Shown in pieces: positions 15,611 through 57,390 of a DNA stretch of 64,000 nucleotides (position 1 is the first letter of the stretch; the number at the start of each line of letters is the position of its first letter). Both the position numbers and the translations under genes were made by a program. The stretch is taken from the NCBI RefSeq assembly GCF_056712565.1, contig NZ_CM160072.1; one strand, given 5' to 3'. Under the pieces are notes generated by a model that worked only from the letters and a program-made list of their open reading frames with translations, searched no databases and was not told where the DNA came from.

Positions 15611-15687
<77 letters not shown>

Positions 15688-15729
15688 AATTTGCACCGCA
15701 AATTTGAAGAGGTTTTAACTACATGTTAT

Positions 15730-15805
15730 GGGGCTATAGCTCAGCTGGGAGAGCGCCTGCTTTGCACGCAGGAGGTCTGCGGTTCGATCCCGCATAGCTC
15801 CACCA
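15730..15805 (+). tRNA. alaV: tRNA-Ala (TGC anticodon)
   Basis: GGGGCTATAGCTCAGCTGGGAGAGC...CTCCACCA cloverleaf in the 16S-23S spacer. Confidence 0.95.
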
Positions 15806-15979
15806 TCTCTGTAGTGATTAAATAAAAAATACTTCAGAGTGTACCTGCAAAGGTTCACTGCGAAGTTTTGCTCTTTAAAAATCTGGATCAAGCTGAAAAT
15901 TGAAACACTGAACAATGAAAGTTGTTCGTGAGTCTCTCAAATTTTCGCAACTCTGAAGTGAAACATCTTCGGGTTGTGA

Positions 15980-18883
<2,904 letters not shown>

Positions 18884-18980
18884 ACAACGCCGAAGCTGTT
18901 TTGGCGGATGAGAGAAGATTTTCAGCCTGATACAGATTAAATCGACAGGTCAGAACAGGACGTGTTGATAAAACAGAATT

Positions 18981-19100
18981 TGCCTGGCGGCCGTAGCGCG
19001 GTGGTCCCACCTGACCCCATGCCGAACTCAGAAGTGAAACGCCGTAGCGCCGATGGTAGTGTGGGGTCTCCCCATGCGAGAGTAGGGAACTGCCAGGCAT
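18981..19100 (+). rRNA. rrfH: 5S ribosomal RNA
   Basis: TGCCTGGCGGCCGTAGCGCGGTGG...GGGAACTGCCAGGCAT, 120 nt. Confidence 0.95.
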
Positions 19101-19151
19101 CAAATTTAGCAGTAAGCCGGTTATAAACCGGTGGTTGTAAAAGAATTCGGT

Positions 19152-19228
19152 GGAGCGGTAGTTCAGTCGGTTAGAATACCTGCCTGTCACGCAGGGGGTC
19201 GCGGGTTCGAGTCCCGTCCGTTCCGCCA
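19152..19228 (+). tRNA. aspU: tRNA-Asp (GTC anticodon), distal tRNA of the rrn operon
   Basis: GGAGCGGTAGTTCAGTCGGTTAGAATACCTGCCTGTCACGCAGG...TTCCGCCA; identical to the second copy at 27375-27451. Confidence 0.95.
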
Positions 19229-27374: not shown

Positions 27375-27451
27375 GGAGCGGTAGTTCAGTCGGTTAGAAT
27401 ACCTGCCTGTCACGCAGGGGGTCGCGGGTTCGAGTCCCGTCCGTTCCGCCA
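27375..27451 (+). tRNA. aspV: tRNA-Asp (GTC anticodon); island-associated tRNA locus
   Basis: Exact repeat of the aspU sequence; immediately followed by an AT-rich region and the accessory island. Confidence 0.95.
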
Positions 27452-52040: not shown

Positions 52041-53087
52041 ATGATAGAAATGAAAAATAACACGCCATTTCCTTTGTTGTCATTTGAAAAATATGGTCGT
52101 TATGGTCTTTTGTTTGATGTTATTGCTATTAAAATGTCATTGCGAATTAAAAATGGATTTTATGCTGATCTTGCTGAGTTTCAAAAAGAATTGTCCATGT
52201 CTGATGAATACTATGGGGAGTCTGAAACAAGTAGTCTAAAATCTGAAACAGACTTAGTTCTTTGTAAAAGAAATACAGATATTCACGTGACAGGTAGTGC
52301 TCATGCCCCTTCAGGGGATAAGTCTCAGTGGAAGGCTTGTGTGAGGGTTAATAGTTTTTCTAAAGAACTGAGTTTATCTGGTGTCCGCTACTTACAATAT
52401 GAGCGAAATCGTTGGCAGATGAGCTTACCAGATAAAATTATTAATGTTCCTCTACGCTATGAGCTTGCTTACGGTGGTATTTGGCAACCAGATGGTATGG
52501 AGAAATTGGTTTTTTCAGCAAACCCTGTAGGTTGTGGATATTATCCTGATATTTCTCAACTTAATACAAGTTGTCAATATAAACTCCCACAAATAACCAG
52601 CTCTGCTTTGTCAGAAAACGCTACCATTTTTAATGGGGAATCTGACTTTTTTCAAGGTGTTGGCCCTGTATCTCGATGGTGGAAAAGTCGCCTCCAGTAT
52701 GCAGGAACCTACAATGAAGTATGGCGTGAAAAGCGCTATCCCTATTTGCCGGATGATTTTGATGAGCGGTTCTACAATAGTGCTCATCCGGATATGATAT
52801 ACACGGGGTTTCTCTCTGGCGATGAAAACATCTCTCTTGAAGGTTTTTTTAAATTTGAACAGGTTGTTAAGACAAAATTGCCAGGTATACGACCTGTACT
52901 TATATTAAAAACCAAGCATAATACATCACATATGTTCTTACCTGTTGCGGATACAATGGTTATCGATTTAAGTCGACAGGAAATATACCTTACCTGGAGA
53001 TTAACAATACCTGATTTTTTTGGAATGAAAGAAGGAGTGCTGAGTTGTATTATTCCTGAATGTATAGGGAAAAAATATTATGGGTAA
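52041..53087 (+). CDS. Putative DUF2169-family T6SS adaptor protein
   Basis: 348-aa low-GC ORF directly between vgrG and a DUF4150/PAAR-like effector, the canonical adaptor position; assignment by context and size. Confidence 0.55.
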   Translation: MIEMKNNTPFPLLSFEKYGRYGLLFDVIAIKMSLRIKNGFYADLAEFQKELSMSDEYYGESETSSLKSETDLVLCKRNTDIHVTGSAHAPSGDKSQWKACVRVNSFSKELSLSGVRYLQYERNRWQMSLPDKIINVPLRYELAYGGIWQPDGMEKLVFSANPVGCGYYPDISQLNTSCQYKLPQITSSALSENATIFNGESDFFQGVGPVSRWWKSRLQYAGTYNEVWREKRYPYLPDDFDERFYNSAHPDMIYTGFLSGDENISLEGFFKFEQVVKTKLPGIRPVLILKTKHNTSHMFLPVADTMVIDLSRQEIYLTWRLTIPDFFGMKEGVLSCIIPECIGKKYYG

Positions 53088-54519
53088 CTATCATATCGGG
53101 GATGGTGAATGTAGATTTAGAGTCGTGTGTTCTTCACCAGATGTATGTGAAGTAGGAGGTTACAAGGTTCCTTTTGACAGTTACCAGACTTTAGATAGTG
53201 AAAGACAGTACAGTTCAACGGTATGGGCGCGTGGATGCAGAGCTTTAAATGTTGGTTCAGTGATTGCTGGAACTCAAAGTAATGCCGGTAAAGGTGTCAT
53301 ATCCGGTACATCTCAAGGAACGGGTGACTGTGTTATTTTAACGGGAAGTCCGACTGTAACAATAGAAGGGAAACCTGTTGCTTATCATGGTTCAGTTGTT
53401 GGGATTAATAACCACAACTGCCTTGGTAAATTGTATACCAAAATAAAATCACCAATGATTTCTGTCATTGATAGAACTTTTAATTATGAAAGGACTGCTG
53501 AAGTAATACACGATTTACTGCTTCTGAAGGATCTCCTCTCTGTTGGTAATATTTTTGACGGAGATATTTCACCTGAGGTTAAAAATGATTTATTTCAAAT
53601 AAAAGATCCTGACCAATCATGGGGGGAGTTTTTTTCAATAAAGAATATCAGAGAATCTCTCAGGAATGGTATTGAAGGAGATAAATCTCAGATCAGAGAA
53701 TGGTTTGGAGAGAACACACTTACTCAAATGGGGAATGGAGCAATCACCACTTTACATGGTGTGGCGGATTTAGCCTTAGTTACATTCGATGCTCTGTTAG
53801 ATACGGCAACGGCAACGGTTGCTTGCCCGATAGGCGAAGATGGGTTATGTGAACAGGCAAATATAAATTTAAATGAAAAAGAACAGGCTTTATTTAATAT
53901 TAGTAATTCATTGATAAATGGGCAAGCATGGGATGCACTTAAAAAAATGATAATGGATACAAATAATGGTGATCAGATTGCTCTGGTGCATTTTGCCAGC
54001 TTTTTATGGGGCTTTATGATACCCGCAAAAATACCAGAAGAAAATATCTCTGGGAAAGTATTTGTAGAGCCAGTAGTTTTAGAAGGTGGTGCTGGTGGCA
54101 ATTGGACAGTATTTGATGAGGTTTTAGATTCAAATGTAATAAAGCAATTGACTTTAACAGGCTGTGGAGCGGCCTGTGGGGAAATGTTGCTTAGGGATAG
54201 GTATATTTTTGTCACGCAAAATGTAATTGGAACAGAATTAACATCTATGACGTCGCTGGCAAACAAGCTTAATAAATTTGATGTCGGCTGGGAAGGGAAT
54301 GCAGTGAGCGAATCTAGTTTATATGCCCTCAGTAATACTGGTTCATGGGGAGCAATGATGTGGGATTCTGGAAGTAAAGTAGGGCATTGGGTACTTGTTA
54401 AGGGTGTTGATGATGCTGGGAATGTGATAATATATGATCCATATCAAGGGAGTCGATATCTGATGACTGAACAGGAATTTAAGGAGGTATGGAATGGGCA
54501 TAGTGTTTACAAACCATAA
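53080..54519 (+). CDS. DUF4150/PAAR-like T6SS effector with C-terminal papain-like cysteine-peptidase toxin domain
   Basis: 479-aa ORF; N-terminus carries DUF4150 motifs (SPDVCEVGG, SGTSQGTGD, GSPTVTIEGKPVAYHGS...NNHN); C-terminal ~130 aa has a Cys/His/Asp arrangement (GCGAACGEM ... GHWVLVKG ... IYDP); start overlaps the upstream gene by 8 nt. Confidence 0.75.
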   Translation: MGNYHIGDGECRFRVVCSSPDVCEVGGYKVPFDSYQTLDSERQYSSTVWARGCRALNVGSVIAGTQSNAGKGVISGTSQGTGDCVILTGSPTVTIEGKPVAYHGSVVGINNHNCLGKLYTKIKSPMISVIDRTFNYERTAEVIHDLLLLKDLLSVGNIFDGDISPEVKNDLFQIKDPDQSWGEFFSIKNIRESLRNGIEGDKSQIREWFGENTLTQMGNGAITTLHGVADLALVTFDALLDTATATVACPIGEDGLCEQANINLNEKEQALFNISNSLINGQAWDALKKMIMDTNNGDQIALVHFASFLWGFMIPAKIPEENISGKVFVEPVVLEGGAGGNWTVFDEVLDSNVIKQLTLTGCGAACGEMLLRDRYIFVTQNVIGTELTSMTSLANKLNKFDVGWEGNAVSESSLYALSNTGSWGAMMWDSGSKVGHWVLVKGVDDAGNVIIYDPYQGSRYLMTEQEFKEVWNGHSVYKP

Positions 54520-54784
54520 TATTGATTTGTTATCGGTTGAATTTGATGAGATTACAAAAAATTGTAATTACACTTTTAGTGTAGATGGAGAGACGGCTAT
54601 CTTTACTGCTAGAATATCAATAATAAGAAATATAAAGGGAATTAAATATAGCGAAGAACTTGATAAATTTATAATGTCAATAATGCCATTGCAGCCTAAA
54701 GTATCAAAAATTTTGGGAGGTGTTACTTGGGATTGTATTTGTGGTAAGGAAGTTGGATTTCCTGTGAGATTAATTGGTAAGTGA
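54494..54784 (+). CDS. Putative cognate immunity protein
   Basis: 96-aa ORF overlapping the effector 3' end by 26 nt, same strand, low GC; no signal peptide. Confidence 0.5.
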   Translation: MGIVFTNHNIDLLSVEFDEITKNCNYTFSVDGETAIFTARISIIRNIKGIKYSEELDKFIMSIMPLQPKVSKILGGVTWDCICGKEVGFPVRLIGK

Positions 54785-55041
54785 AGGGTGGTGAGGTATT
54801 TCTATATTTTTTTCGTGAAAGTCTTTAAAACTGAAATTATCTTGTTGGGAGCCCAAGGTGAGATCATAAAACGTATTATTTTATAAATATTGTTATGCAG
54901 GGAAAGGTCAAGTAATGCTGCTTTTTTGTACTAAATAATTCGCATTTTATGTTCAATAATTGAGGTGTTCCTTATTACCTAAAGCTGTTTTTCATTGCTT
55001 ATACATGATCAAATACTCATTGCCTAATTAAGGGGGACAAA

Positions 55042-55920
55042 ATGGAACTTAAAAAATTGATGGAACATATTTCTATTATTCCCGATTACAGGCAAGCCTG
55101 GAAAGTGGAACATAAATTGCCAGATATTCTATCTGTTAACTATTTGCGCCGTTATTTCTGGTGCATAATGCTGGGAAGATATAGAGGATTTGGGGAAACA
55201 CATCTCGATTTTTTGAAGTGATATGGTGATTTTGAAAATGGTATTCCTGTTCACGATATCATTGCCAGAGTTGTATCCTGTATCAGTCCTGCAAAATTTC
55301 ATGAGTGCTTTATTAACTGGATGCGTGACTGCCATTCCTCAGATGATAAAGATGTCATTGCAATTGATGGAAAAACGCTTCGGCACTCTTATGACAAGAG
55401 TCGCCGCAAGGGAGCGATTTATGTCATTAAAATCCGTCTTCATATTATTTGCGATGTCCCTGATGAACTTATTGATTTCACGTTTGAATGGAAAGAGCTG
55501 AAGAAATTATGCATGGCAGTCTCCTTTCGTTCAATAATAACAGAACAAAAGAAAGAGCCAGAAATGACGGACAGATATTATAGCATTTCTGCTGATTTAA
55601 CCGCAGAGAAGTTCGCCACAGCGAACCGAAATCACTGGTACGTGGAGAATAAGCTGCACTGGCATCTGGACGTGGTAATGAATAAAGACGACTGCAAAAT
55701 AAGAAGAGGAAATGCAGCAGAATTATTTTCAGGGATACGGAAGATCGCTATTAATATTTTAACGAAAGATAAGATACTCAAGGCAGGGGCAAGATGTAAG
55801 ATGTGAAAAGCAGCTGCGGACAGAGACTACCTCGCGTCAGTCCTTGCGGGGGCGGGCTTTCGTATTCTTGCTCTGCAAGGGATGATAAAAAGTGCAACTT
55901 TATTCCACGCAGCTATTTAG
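55042..55920 (+). mobile_element. Decayed ISAs1-family (H-repeat-associated) transposase remnant
   Basis: Fragments in several frames match an H-repeat/ISAs1 transposase: [26 protein letters not shown]..., [12 protein letters not shown]...[40 protein letters not shown], then C-terminal [21 protein letters not shown]...[31 protein letters not shown]; frameshifts plus an internal deletion of ~150 codons. Confidence 0.7.
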
Positions 55921-56034
55921 ACAGCGTACAGTAAACAAACGAAAGTTGTTATTTCAATGGTCAGGGCAAGAGCATGAAGTGTTTACTACACACTATGCTC
56001 TTGTCCTGGAGTCAGGTCTTGTTTGGAGGGATAA

Positions 56035-56538
56035 ATGGTAGATATTGTCGAGGCCGATAAAACGGATATTTATTTCATTCAGGAGAGTGTTTATGGCAAA
56101 ATCGGGTTGCCAGCTTTTGGTAATACAATAGGACCATCCGCACAGCAAGTTGTTAAAAAGGTATTCGCTGTCGTTAAAGAACGAGATAAGACACATGCAA
56201 AACAGAGATTATTGTTGGAATATAATGGTAACAAACTCTGGATGAATGCTATTGATGGCAGTGAAGCTATCCTACCAACAGAATTTTCTAAGCGATACGA
56301 ACTTTCATTATTCAATACTACTAATTTTGGAGAAGATCCTTTTCCTGATGTTAATTTATATAATAATATGAAATCAAGTTTTTTTGTAAGGTTTGGTGGA
56401 ACATCCCATCCCGAGGCTTGGGCTATTTATAATGCAAGTACGAAAGAGGTTAAATATATAGAAACTGCAAGAGAAATTGATAAAATATTCAGTGATTTTA
56501 ACTTGAGTGGTACATTGCCAATTCACATTGGTCAATGA
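56035..56538 (+). CDS. Hypothetical protein (orphan, low GC)
   Basis: 167-aa ORF with GGAGGG RBS, no signal peptide, AT-rich codon usage; no motif recognised. Confidence 0.5.
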   Translation: MVDIVEADKTDIYFIQESVYGKIGLPAFGNTIGPSAQQVVKKVFAVVKERDKTHAKQRLLLEYNGNKLWMNAIDGSEAILPTEFSKRYELSLFNTTNFGEDPFPDVNLYNNMKSSFFVRFGGTSHPEAWAIYNASTKEVKYIETAREIDKIFSDFNLSGTLPIHIGQ

Positions 56539-56607
56539 TTTTTTAAATTGTGTGATTAAATAATTGAACATTAATGATGATTTATAGCATCATTATTATT
56601 CTATAAC

Positions 56608-57120
56608 ATGAATAAACGGATTGAATGTGTTATGTTAAAAATGAGTTTATACGTAATAATATTGTTATTTTCCCTTCAGTTTAGTGCAGCCATTACTGGC
56701 AAGGAAAGTGAGGTTGTTTCACCATTATTAATGGATGTTAATCCTTCACTAACAATGGAAAATATTTCTGAATTATCCACATCATCGGAACCATCGCAAC
56801 AGGGGGTATTTCCTGTAATATGTACTCGACTTCATCCTGGCTCCGTAATGAAACGTCAGTTATTAACCGGCTGGGGGCCTGTTTTTATAATTGGTGATGA
56901 TCCTTTTTCTCTGCGCTGGATGAGTGAACATCTGGAGATCCTTAAATCGCTAAATGCCCTTGGTTTGGTTGTTAATGTTGAATCAGTAGAACGAATGGAG
57001 GTATTACAGCAGCGGGCTGATGGGTTATTGTTATTGCCAGTTATCTGCGATAATTTTGTGCAAGCTCTGCAATTAAATGCTTATCCGGTATTAATCACAG
57101 AGATGGAAATATCACAATGA
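56608..57120 (+). CDS. Hypothetical secreted protein (orphan, low GC)
   Basis: 170-aa ORF with predicted N-terminal signal peptide (MSLYVIILLFSLQFSAA); no motif recognised. Confidence 0.5.
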   Translation: MNKRIECVMLKMSLYVIILLFSLQFSAAITGKESEVVSPLLMDVNPSLTMENISELSTSSEPSQQGVFPVICTRLHPGSVMKRQLLTGWGPVFIIGDDPFSLRWMSEHLEILKSLNALGLVVNVESVERMEVLQQRADGLLLLPVICDNFVQALQLNAYPVLITEMEISQ

Positions 57121-57145
57121 TTAATAACATAATTACTGCTAATAA

Positions 57146-57390
57146 TATGGTGATTTTGAAAATGGTAATCCTGTTCACGACACCATAATCAGAGTTATGT
57201 CCTGTATCCGTTCAGTAAAATTTCACGAATGCTTTATTAACCGGATGCGTGAATGTCATTCTTCAGACGACATAGACGTCATTGCGATTGATGGAAAAGC
57301 ACTTCCACACTCCTGTGATAAAAGTCGTCGCAGGAGAGCGGGCTTTCGTAGTCTTCCCCGACTCTCCCCGGCCCTAAACACAACCCCCAC
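57146..57390 (+). mobile_element. Second ISAs1-family transposase fragment (yafF-like)
   Basis: Encodes [66 protein letters not shown], a diverged direct repeat (~85% identity by eye) of 55213-55410; abuts the yafV 3' end. Confidence 0.6.

Follow-up and report, generated by a model that had tools for sequence, protein, structure and literature searches.

The right-hand end of a type VI secretion system (T6SS) island in pathogenic Escherichia coli carries two small genes, referred to here as ORF1 and ORF2 (ORF, open reading frame), which lie between two defective ISAs1-family insertion sequence (IS) fragments, A and B, beside the core gene yafV. The sequence analyzed, hereafter the window, is a stretch of 64,000 nucleotides (nt) from contig NZ_CM160072.1 of the NCBI RefSeq assembly GCF_056712565.1. 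The reading preferred here, to which a probability of roughly 0.45 is given for the package and a lower one for the specific roles, is that ORF1 encodes, or once encoded, a small cargo toxin for the T6SS from a family not yet described, with ORF2, an exapted protein of a conjugative element, as its periplasmic partner. The two genes are as follows.

56035..56538, + strand: ORF1 (WP_000227712, 167 amino acids), from ORF calling, profile searches, and a structure model.
56632..57120, + strand: ORF2 (WP_001298174, 162 amino acids; 170 amino acids with the start at 56608), from the NCBI Prokaryotic Genome Annotation Pipeline (PGAP) and a TIGR03765/DUF2859 match.

ORF1 begins with an ATG preceded at a distance of 5 nt by GGAGGG, and its product is predicted to be soluble, with neither a transmembrane (TM)-like nor a hydrophobic N-terminal segment. 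No match was obtained in Pfam, NCBIfam, or PADLOC, and a word-based search of 5.8 billion proteins returned E. coli sequences only. When 1.84 billion cluster representatives were searched exhaustively with a profile, 36 proteins were found, mostly of 180–196 amino acids and 23–39% identical; 21 members of this family were compared with Pfam and NCBIfam with no match for any of them, and the family profile retrieved nothing from the sequences in the PDB. Structure prediction with a three-sequence alignment gave a predicted local distance difference test score (pLDDT) of 43 and became confident only after the remote relatives were added, the resulting AlphaFold model (pLDDT 86, predicted template modeling score 0.81) being composed of long β-hairpins and a C-terminal helix. 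Fold searches with this model found no match in the PDB, and in AFDB50 they retrieved only entries named “uncharacterized protein,” from E. coli, Cedecea, Citrobacter, Morganella, Pantoea, Yersinia, Salmonella, Burkholderia, and others. ORF1 retains the residues that are nearly invariant in the family, i.e., G65, G99, D101, P102, P104, L108, Y109, F116, G121, G122, P126, and A128.

The genomic contexts of the family are of two kinds. The relatives P0033, P0034, P0036, P0039, P0042, and P0047 are each encoded by the first gene of a two- or three-gene operon with overlapping stop and start codons, located among unrelated housekeeping genes. The second gene of the family operons encodes a protein with four TM-like segments in all seven cases (7/7), and the third gene, where present, encodes a DUF805 protein or a protein with two to three TM segments. 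The other contexts are linked to the T6SS: the gene for P0028 starts 16 bp after an orphan hcp, and that for P0035 follows tssB–tssC in the cargo zone of a T6SS cluster, where it heads a run of small ORFs, several with signal-peptide-like N-termini. In E. coli, each of the two ORF1 alleles follows VgrG/PAAR modules and lies where a T6SS island ends. Because the family normally precedes a four-TM protein, with occasional linkage to hcp or tssBC, its members are regarded, by analogy, as candidate small T6SS cargo effectors, ORF1 among them. The position of P0035, which is the usual position of hcp, raised the alternative that ORF1 is a divergent Hcp; this was rejected, as no Hcp appeared in the PDB fold searches and P0028 adjoins a true Hcp. 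Two side observations belong to these contexts. The coupled operon, comprising a soluble protein of approximately 190 amino acids, a four-TM protein of 135–157 amino acids, and in several instances a DUF805-type protein, recurs at various chromosomal sites in Enterobacterales and other Proteobacteria (L012, L015, L021, L025, L028, and L029). In the T6SS cargo zone with P0035 (L016, 8835–9802), a 126-amino-acid protein showing a Cys...His pattern precedes a 183-amino-acid protein whose N-terminus is signal-peptide-like, and by sequence the pair resembles an amidase-type effector with an immunity protein.

ORF2 is of a different origin. Its product is 170 amino acids long when read from the first ATG (56608) and 162 amino acids long from the start chosen by PGAP (56632), which is matched by a second allele described below. 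Its single hydrophobic segment is N-terminal and signal-like; a linker rich in Ser, Thr, and Glu and a complete DUF2859 domain follow. The product matches Pfam DUF2859 (PF11072) with an E value of 1.3e-28 and TIGR03765, the PFL_4695 family of integrating conjugative element (ICE) proteins, with 121 bits (cutoff 59.75) over the entire model (1–105/105). A sequence search of the PDB matched no solved structure, and the PADLOC profiles gave no match. The nearest relatives outside Escherichia, 35–43% identical, belong to MPF_G conjugative plasmids and ICEs, including ICEHin1056 and pUM505, in which the gene order is TIGR03759, SLT transglycosylase (or a 193-amino-acid ORF), DUF2859, and traD. In ICEHin1056 (L018, 4050–5330) and pUM505 (L020, 4243–5321), the DUF2859 gene directly follows or overlaps the SLT transglycosylase gene or the 193-amino-acid ORF and precedes traD, and it is conceivable that DUF2859 controls the transglycosylase in MPF_G elements. 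No conjugation gene stands beside ORF2 in the window, TIGR03759, SLT, and traD all being missing. The favored reading is that ORF2 encodes a periplasmic protein of the DUF2859 family that came from the mating-pair module of a conjugative element of the MPF_G type. The place of SLT in these elements, together with a motif resemblance, invites the idea that ORF1 is itself an SLT-like lytic transglycosylase, which was rejected: hhalign probabilities for the ORF1 family against the SLT protein of ICEHin1056, the 193-amino-acid protein of pUM505, and a 126-amino-acid Pantoea protein were 0.07–0.4%, and no lysozyme-like fold was matched. In Pseudomonas islands of the PAPI-1/PAGI-5 type, the DUF2859 gene belongs to the core and stands at the edge of a hotspot whose cargo includes defense and anti-defense genes (PMC12629846).

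The preliminary description of this locus, made from the window alone, had proposed a cytoplasmic-type ORF of 167 amino acids and an ORF of 170 amino acids with a signal peptide. Both are present, with a hydrophobic N-terminal segment in ORF2 and none in ORF1. Its statement that neither has a recognized domain holds for ORF1, for which Pfam, NCBIfam, and fold searches are all negative, and fails for ORF2. Its proposal of an orphan toxin or immunity module is partly sustained, since relatives of ORF1 occur beside hcp, in a T6SS cluster, and in operons resembling toxin–immunity pairs; ORF2 departs from it as a conjugative-element protein outside the known immunity families, and the four-TM partner is missing.

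The housekeeping surroundings of most family operons, with no T6SS gene nearby, suit a quite different account, in which the family would be no T6SS effector but the soluble subunit of an envelope or membrane module (soluble protein, four-TM protein, and DUF805 protein) serving, e.g., stress, defense, or exclusion, the T6SS neighborhood being coincidental and ORF1–ORF2 a variant of the module in E. coli. The two or three genes overlap at their start and stop codons, which suggests a stoichiometric complex, and the defense cargo bordered by DUF2859 in the Pseudomonas islands points in the same direction. On the other side, PADLOC recognized none of ORF1, ORF2, and the partner protein of P0033 and gave only a marginal Cas8b match for P0028 (E value 0.0078). 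Scattered loci unlinked to T6SS genes are also the norm for the proven Hcp-cargo effectors Ssp4 and Ssp6 (PMC12669606; PMC6889166), and the family is associated with the T6SS four times independently, once behind hcp, once behind tssBC, and twice in E. coli, where it lies at the end of two separate T6SS islands. The envelope-module account is held to be quite improbable, well behind the cargo-toxin reading.

The cargo-toxin reading is also informed by the variation of the pair. The full arrangement of A, ORF1, ORF2, and B is present in 541 complete genomes, and a second allele of ORF1–ORF2, with 75.6% DNA identity to the window allele over 1.1 kb, is present in 12 complete genomes. In strain ET350, the second allele is preceded by modules in the order PAAR, vgrG, DUF6484, DUF2169, DUF4150, HNH toxin, and PAAR-like, then IS3 and three ORFs, and is followed by a full-length ISAs1 and yafV; no ISAs1 copy lies upstream. 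Both genes are intact in both alleles, in the same order. ORF1 differs by 2 amino acids in length and has 68% amino acid identity, a synonymous divergence (dS) of 0.60, and a ratio of nonsynonymous to synonymous divergence (dN/dS) of 0.30; the values for ORF2 are 74% amino acid identity (full-length BLASTP; 76% over 161 aligned codons), dS 0.39, and dN/dS 0.36. ORF2 lies 93 bp downstream of ORF1 in the same orientation, has a signal-like N-terminus, diverges in step with ORF1, and is unrelated to the usual four-TM partner of the family. Divergence between the two alleles far exceeds that of ordinary E. coli genes, and the comparison indicates that ORF1 and ORF2 are real genes kept together under moderate purifying selection. 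The three co-oriented ORFs before the second allele (L007, 4931–7576; L024, 13956–16646) encode a protein of 327/342 amino acids without a family, one of 411 amino acids with a weak TIGR02270 match, and a thioredoxin-like one of 137 amino acids; they may be part of the same ancestral module, with fragment A now in their place in the window. IS1 insertions in ORF1 were located at ~56291 in E. coli isolate 127 (L005) and at ~56299 in RIVM_C036204 (L006), approximately 8 bp apart; with the insertion, an OXA-48 carbapenemase segment has entered one of these strains and plasmid-derived genes the other.

Several points weigh against the cargo-toxin reading. A segment of approximately 30 amino acids present in all other family members is missing from both E. 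coli alleles of ORF1, and ORF1, lacking this conserved segment, may be inactive. T6SS linkage is found in only 2 of the 9 family contexts outside E. coli, the usual four-TM partner is missing at the E. coli locus, and DUF2859 is no known immunity family. Furthermore, the pair is dispensable: it is absent altogether from most E. coli; in approximately 200 genomes of the D10, Nissle 1917, and ABU 83972 type, which have a different island, ORF1 has been lost and only 66 amino acids of ORF2 remain, with B and yafV still following; and in a few genomes an IS1 carrying resistance or plasmid DNA interrupts ORF1. Finally, for the lineages with chimeric IS copies described below, the parental arrangement was not observed and loss of the pair is known only indirectly.

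Much of this would also be expected if the two genes were unrelated relics, ORF1 a disabled effector leftover without membrane immunity genes and ORF2 the last gene of a decayed MPF_G element, fused by a deletion, without joint function and persisting by linkage to the island. ORF1 lacks both usual partner genes as well as the ~30-amino-acid segment, ORF2 has none of its normal ICE neighbors, the block is often lost, truncated, or disrupted by IS, and a dN/dS of 0.3–0.36 is relaxed for E. coli genes. Yet two alleles that differ at one quarter of their nucleotides (dS 0.4–0.6) keep both frames open, in the same order, and with a dN/dS well below 1, which is unexpected for neutral relics, and ORF1 retains the nearly invariant residues and a confident predicted fold. 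Unrelated relics are considered the most serious competitor, albeit a somewhat unlikely one, and the cargo-toxin reading is retained.

A stretch of 3.2 kb at the locus is 100% identical in UTI89, S88, APEC O1, IHE3034, NU14, and the E. coli type strain ATCC 11775. In the RefSeq annotation of the identical S88 sequence, the gene order is hcp, vgrG, DUF2169, cpe1, cpi1, an ISAs1 pseudogene, WP_000227712 (“hypothetical protein”), WP_001298174 (“integrating conjugative element protein”), a partial ISAs1, yafV, ivy, and fadE. The transfer RNA (tRNA) gene for tRNA-Asp, aspV, is found at 27375–27451 of the window, and the locus is therefore the right-hand end of the ~30-kb aspV T6SS island of B2 E. 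coli, with yafV as the first core gene. The remaining features are listed below.

53080..54784, + strand: cpe1 (53080–54519) and cpi1 (54494–54784), from the RefSeq annotation of the identical S88 sequence and PMC12136450.
54899..55875, + strand: IS fragment A, a defective ISEc1-type ISAs1, from blastn against the full ISEc1 of strain 2012C-4502 and the PGAP pseudogene note.
55221..55416, + strand: direct repeat copy A, inside IS fragment A, from a repeat search and alignments.
55961..56009, + strand: a strong hairpin, from folding energy compared with shuffled sequences.
57144..57359, + strand: IS fragment B, containing direct repeat copy B (57145–57340), from mapping onto ISEc1.
57391..58170, − strand: yafV (2-oxoglutaramate amidase), the right island boundary, from the RefSeq annotation.

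Cpe1 and Cpi1 are a published pair, a PAAR-like cysteine-protease T6SS effector and its immunity protein, and the paper describing them does not discuss the genes downstream (PMC12136450). The cpe1–cpi1 pair is the last canonical cargo module of the island, so that the placement after a T6SS effector/immunity cassette that had been proposed for the pair is borne out, as is its low GC content (0.30–0.39 over ORF1/ORF2 vs. 0.53–0.58 in yafV). A literature search on the junction of aspV, yafV, ISAs1, H-repeat, and T6SS found nothing. The hairpin occupies part of the 159-bp spacer between fragment A and ORF1, its 3′ end lying 26 nt upstream of the ORF1 start codon; it has a near-perfect 20-bp stem with a folding free energy of −31.8 kcal/mol (z −3.3 relative to shuffles), no T-tract follows it, and an Rfam search gave no match. 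Only its right arm falls inside the block shared with the second allele. A scan for promoters and terminators was uninformative, with 9 promoter-like sites against 10.4 expected. Elsewhere in the window (15611–19228), tRNA-Ile(GAT) and tRNA-Ala(TGC) followed by a tRNA-Asp at 19152 represent the spacer and distal tRNAs of a ribosomal RNA operon upstream of the aspV island.

The IS fragments that flank the pair were mapped onto a full-length ISEc1 from the same junction in strain 2012C-4502 (locus L009; coordinates prefixed q). The preliminary description had reported an ISAs1 segment twice in direct orientation (55213–55410 and 57146–57340, ~85% identical), which is essentially correct: the repeat spans 55221–55416 and 57145–57340, i.e., 196 nt that align without gaps and in register, with 162 of 196 positions (83%) identical. 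Since both copies map to a single stretch of ISEc1 (q422–618), they are homologous repeats, as had been claimed, and no chance match. PGAP/RefSeq annotates each fragment as an ISAs1 family transposase pseudogene. Fragment A is a whole ISEc1-type element with both termini, in which 54899–55429 corresponds to q101–631 (92.9% identity) and 55430–55875 to q944–1390 (91.7%); an internal deletion of 312 bp (q632–943), a frameshift, and an internal stop break its transposase frame, and no target-site duplication is present in the flanking bases. Inside the repeat, A is 96% identical to ISEc1. Fragment B comes from the interior of a divergent ISAs1 (57144–57340, corresponding to q422–618, 83.8%), and its 197 bp of internal sequence do not hold an intact transposase frame; it lacks a left end and is joined through a microhomology of approximately 8 bp to a remnant of approximately 20 bp of the right terminal repeat of the element (57340–57359), 31 bp from the yafV stop codon. 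It is 81–84% identical to every ISEc1-type copy examined (~16% diverged) and 93% identical to the corresponding fragment of strain D10. Because A is of ISEc1 type and B is not close to any ISEc1 copy, the alignments indicate that the two are homologous remnants of different ISAs1 lineages rather than products of a recent duplication. Both are dead, being unable to transpose, and matter as homology patches only. The identification of B with the K-12 pseudogene yafF was rejected, as yafF is a 3′ piece of the element (q1100–1379) and thus another part of it. In 2012C-4502 (L009, 6262–6320), the complete ISEc1 beside yafV has directly behind it another copy of the IS right terminus, this one of B type (GGAGCGGGCTTTCGTAGTCTTACCC), and the old end of the B lineage therefore persists even there.

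Two direct IS copies flanking genes, together with the occurrence of the block once or twice per genome and in three plasmid locations, recall a composite-transposon-like cassette in which the ISAs1 copies would move ORF1–ORF2 as a unit. This is effectively refuted by the missing left end of B, the deletion, frameshift, and stop of A and its lack of a target-site duplication, the confinement of the block essentially to the chromosomal site beside yafV, and the second allele, which has no upstream ISAs1 copy.

The remaining role of the repeats is in homologous recombination. Within the repeat, 26 diagnostic sites were defined at which the ISEc1-type copies (A, L009, and L007) share one base and the B-type copies (fragment B of the window and D10) have another. 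Two loci carry chimeras, each with one clean switch at a different point: L008 has the ISEc1-type base at 15 sites and then the B-type base at 11, and L010 has 11 ISEc1-type sites followed by 15 B-type sites. The two loci also have unlike sequences left of the IS end, namely Rhs orphan genes in one and a tssA remnant and a small ORF in the other. Two distinct switch points and different left flanks are the mark of recombination between B and an ISEc1-type copy upstream of it on at least two independent occasions; each crossover would have brought its own left flank and removed the intervening DNA. Chimeras of this kind could also arise if B had once been longer and ISEc1 copies had converted its 5′ part, but such gene conversion leaves the different left flanks unexplained.

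Junctions were counted with a 251-bp query across the chimeric fragment and the junction in 5,426 complete genomes. The junction occurs in 1008 of them, of which 743 have a B-type fragment with the 3′ end of ORF2 attached and 265 a chimeric fragment (ISEc1-type 5′ part, B-type 3′ part) without ORF1 and ORF2; 207 of the latter are at least 99% identical to L008 and 58, at 95–99%, are L010-like. Because ORF2 lies upstream of non-chimeric B in every case examined, we infer that ORF1–ORF2 was part of the DNA lost in the chimeric lineages. A larger set of 2480 genomes covering a synthetic A/B junction was rejected as deletion products, since the count also takes in genomes with a full ISEc1, and the tighter query reduced it to the 265. 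No A × B deletion directly behind cpi1 was found in the 5,426 genomes (synthetic-junction query; no match over the cpi1-proximal 97 bases). Given the ~16% divergence of B, a longest perfect run of 23 bp shared by A and B, and this absence of deletions behind cpi1, the two copies in the present strain would be a poor substrate, with a divergence that should keep recombination between them very rare at most. The 265 chimeric genomes, with at least two crossover points and without ORF1/ORF2, indicate that IS–IS recombination at this repeat has happened in other lineages. The suggestion that the direct repeats could mediate excision thus applies to those lineages and hardly to the strain in which it was made.

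These results are compatible with the following history. An old ISAs1 element beside yafV would have been reduced to fragment B, and a second, ISEc1-type element (A), itself now dead, would have come to lie downstream of cpe1–cpi1. The ORF1–ORF2 block between them is probably older than either IS configuration and would have been kept as a unit. ORF1 would be a shortened member of a family of soluble, β-rich proteins of approximately 190 amino acids that behave like small T6SS cargo effectors, and we infer for it and for ORF2 the roles of effector and immunity protein: ORF1 would be, or have been, a T6SS-delivered toxin acting on the envelope, and ORF2 would have replaced the usual four-TM immunity protein as its periplasmic partner. 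In other lineages, recombination between an upstream ISEc1-type copy and B would have removed the intervening DNA, as one route by which the island end is remodeled. The fully specified version, in which ORF1 and its ~190-amino-acid relatives form an undescribed T6SS cargo toxin family with a new β-rich fold and four-TM inner-membrane immunity proteins, and in which the short form in B2 E. coli was swapped to a DUF2859 protein captured from a conjugative element, is unlikely as a whole.

The locus offers a countable example of dead IS copies that still act as recombination sites trimming a T6SS island (two crossover points, 265 of 5,426 complete genomes). Furthermore, the ORF1 family provides a lead, as it combines a confident unmatched fold with a conserved four-TM partner, extends across Enterobacterales and Burkholderia, and occupies positions of small cargo effectors; new effector families of the Ssp4/Ssp6 type have proved biologically important. 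The stable pairing with a stray DUF2859 gene is a possible handle on a core ICE protein. If DUF2859 was indeed swapped in as an immunity protein or partner, a function would have been recruited from a type IV secretion module, which would hint at the role of DUF2859 in ICEs.

Among known systems, the effector–immunity pairs Ssp4/Sip4 and Ssp6/Sip6 of Serratia, with pore-forming, Hcp-dependent effectors, resemble the ORF1 family in that small soluble proteins without a known domain are each followed by a small integral membrane protein (with four TM segments, like Sip4), mostly away from T6SS genes and sometimes beside hcp (PMC12669606; PMC6889166). Ssp4 consists of 13 α-helices, and Ssp6 has substantial α-helical content by secondary-structure prediction (PMC12669606; PMC6889166). 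By contrast, the ORF1 model is β-rich with one terminal helix and no TM-like segment, a distinction that is drawn from these published descriptions, and the E. coli ORF1 has no membrane partner. The likeness is an analogy and implies no membership. ORF2 compares with the PFL_4695/DUF2859 proteins of MPF_G ICEs (ICEHin1056 and the pKLC102/PAPI-1 type) in its full TIGR03765 match, size, N-terminal signal, and level of identity. In those elements the gene stands between SLT (or the 193-amino-acid ORF) and traD, whereas ORF2 has an upstream gene unrelated to SLT and an IS fragment downstream.

The arrangement of the locus also has precedents. The K-12 pseudogene yafF, an H-repeat remnant beside yafV, is an ISAs1 remnant at the same junction, but it is 97% identical to ISEc1 over a region distinct from q422–618 of fragment B, and the K-12 locus has no homolog of ORF1 or ORF2. 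The H-repeat (ISAs1/ISEc1) arrays behind Rhs/T6SS toxin genes likewise place direct ISAs1 copies amid orphan toxin- or immunity-type ORFs at the distal end of a locus reshaped by recombination; one of these occupies the same yafV junction in 2012C-4502, with three ISEc1 copies and Rhs orphan modules between them. The present locus differs in that its cargo is neither an Rhs tip nor the immunity gene of one but a small protein and a conjugative-element gene, and in that both IS copies are dead, one of them ~16% diverged. The architecture itself is the ordinary debris of an island end, with dead IS copies much as in the H-repeat arrays that follow Rhs toxins, and it is the gene pair, especially the ORF1 family, that is the less ordinary part.

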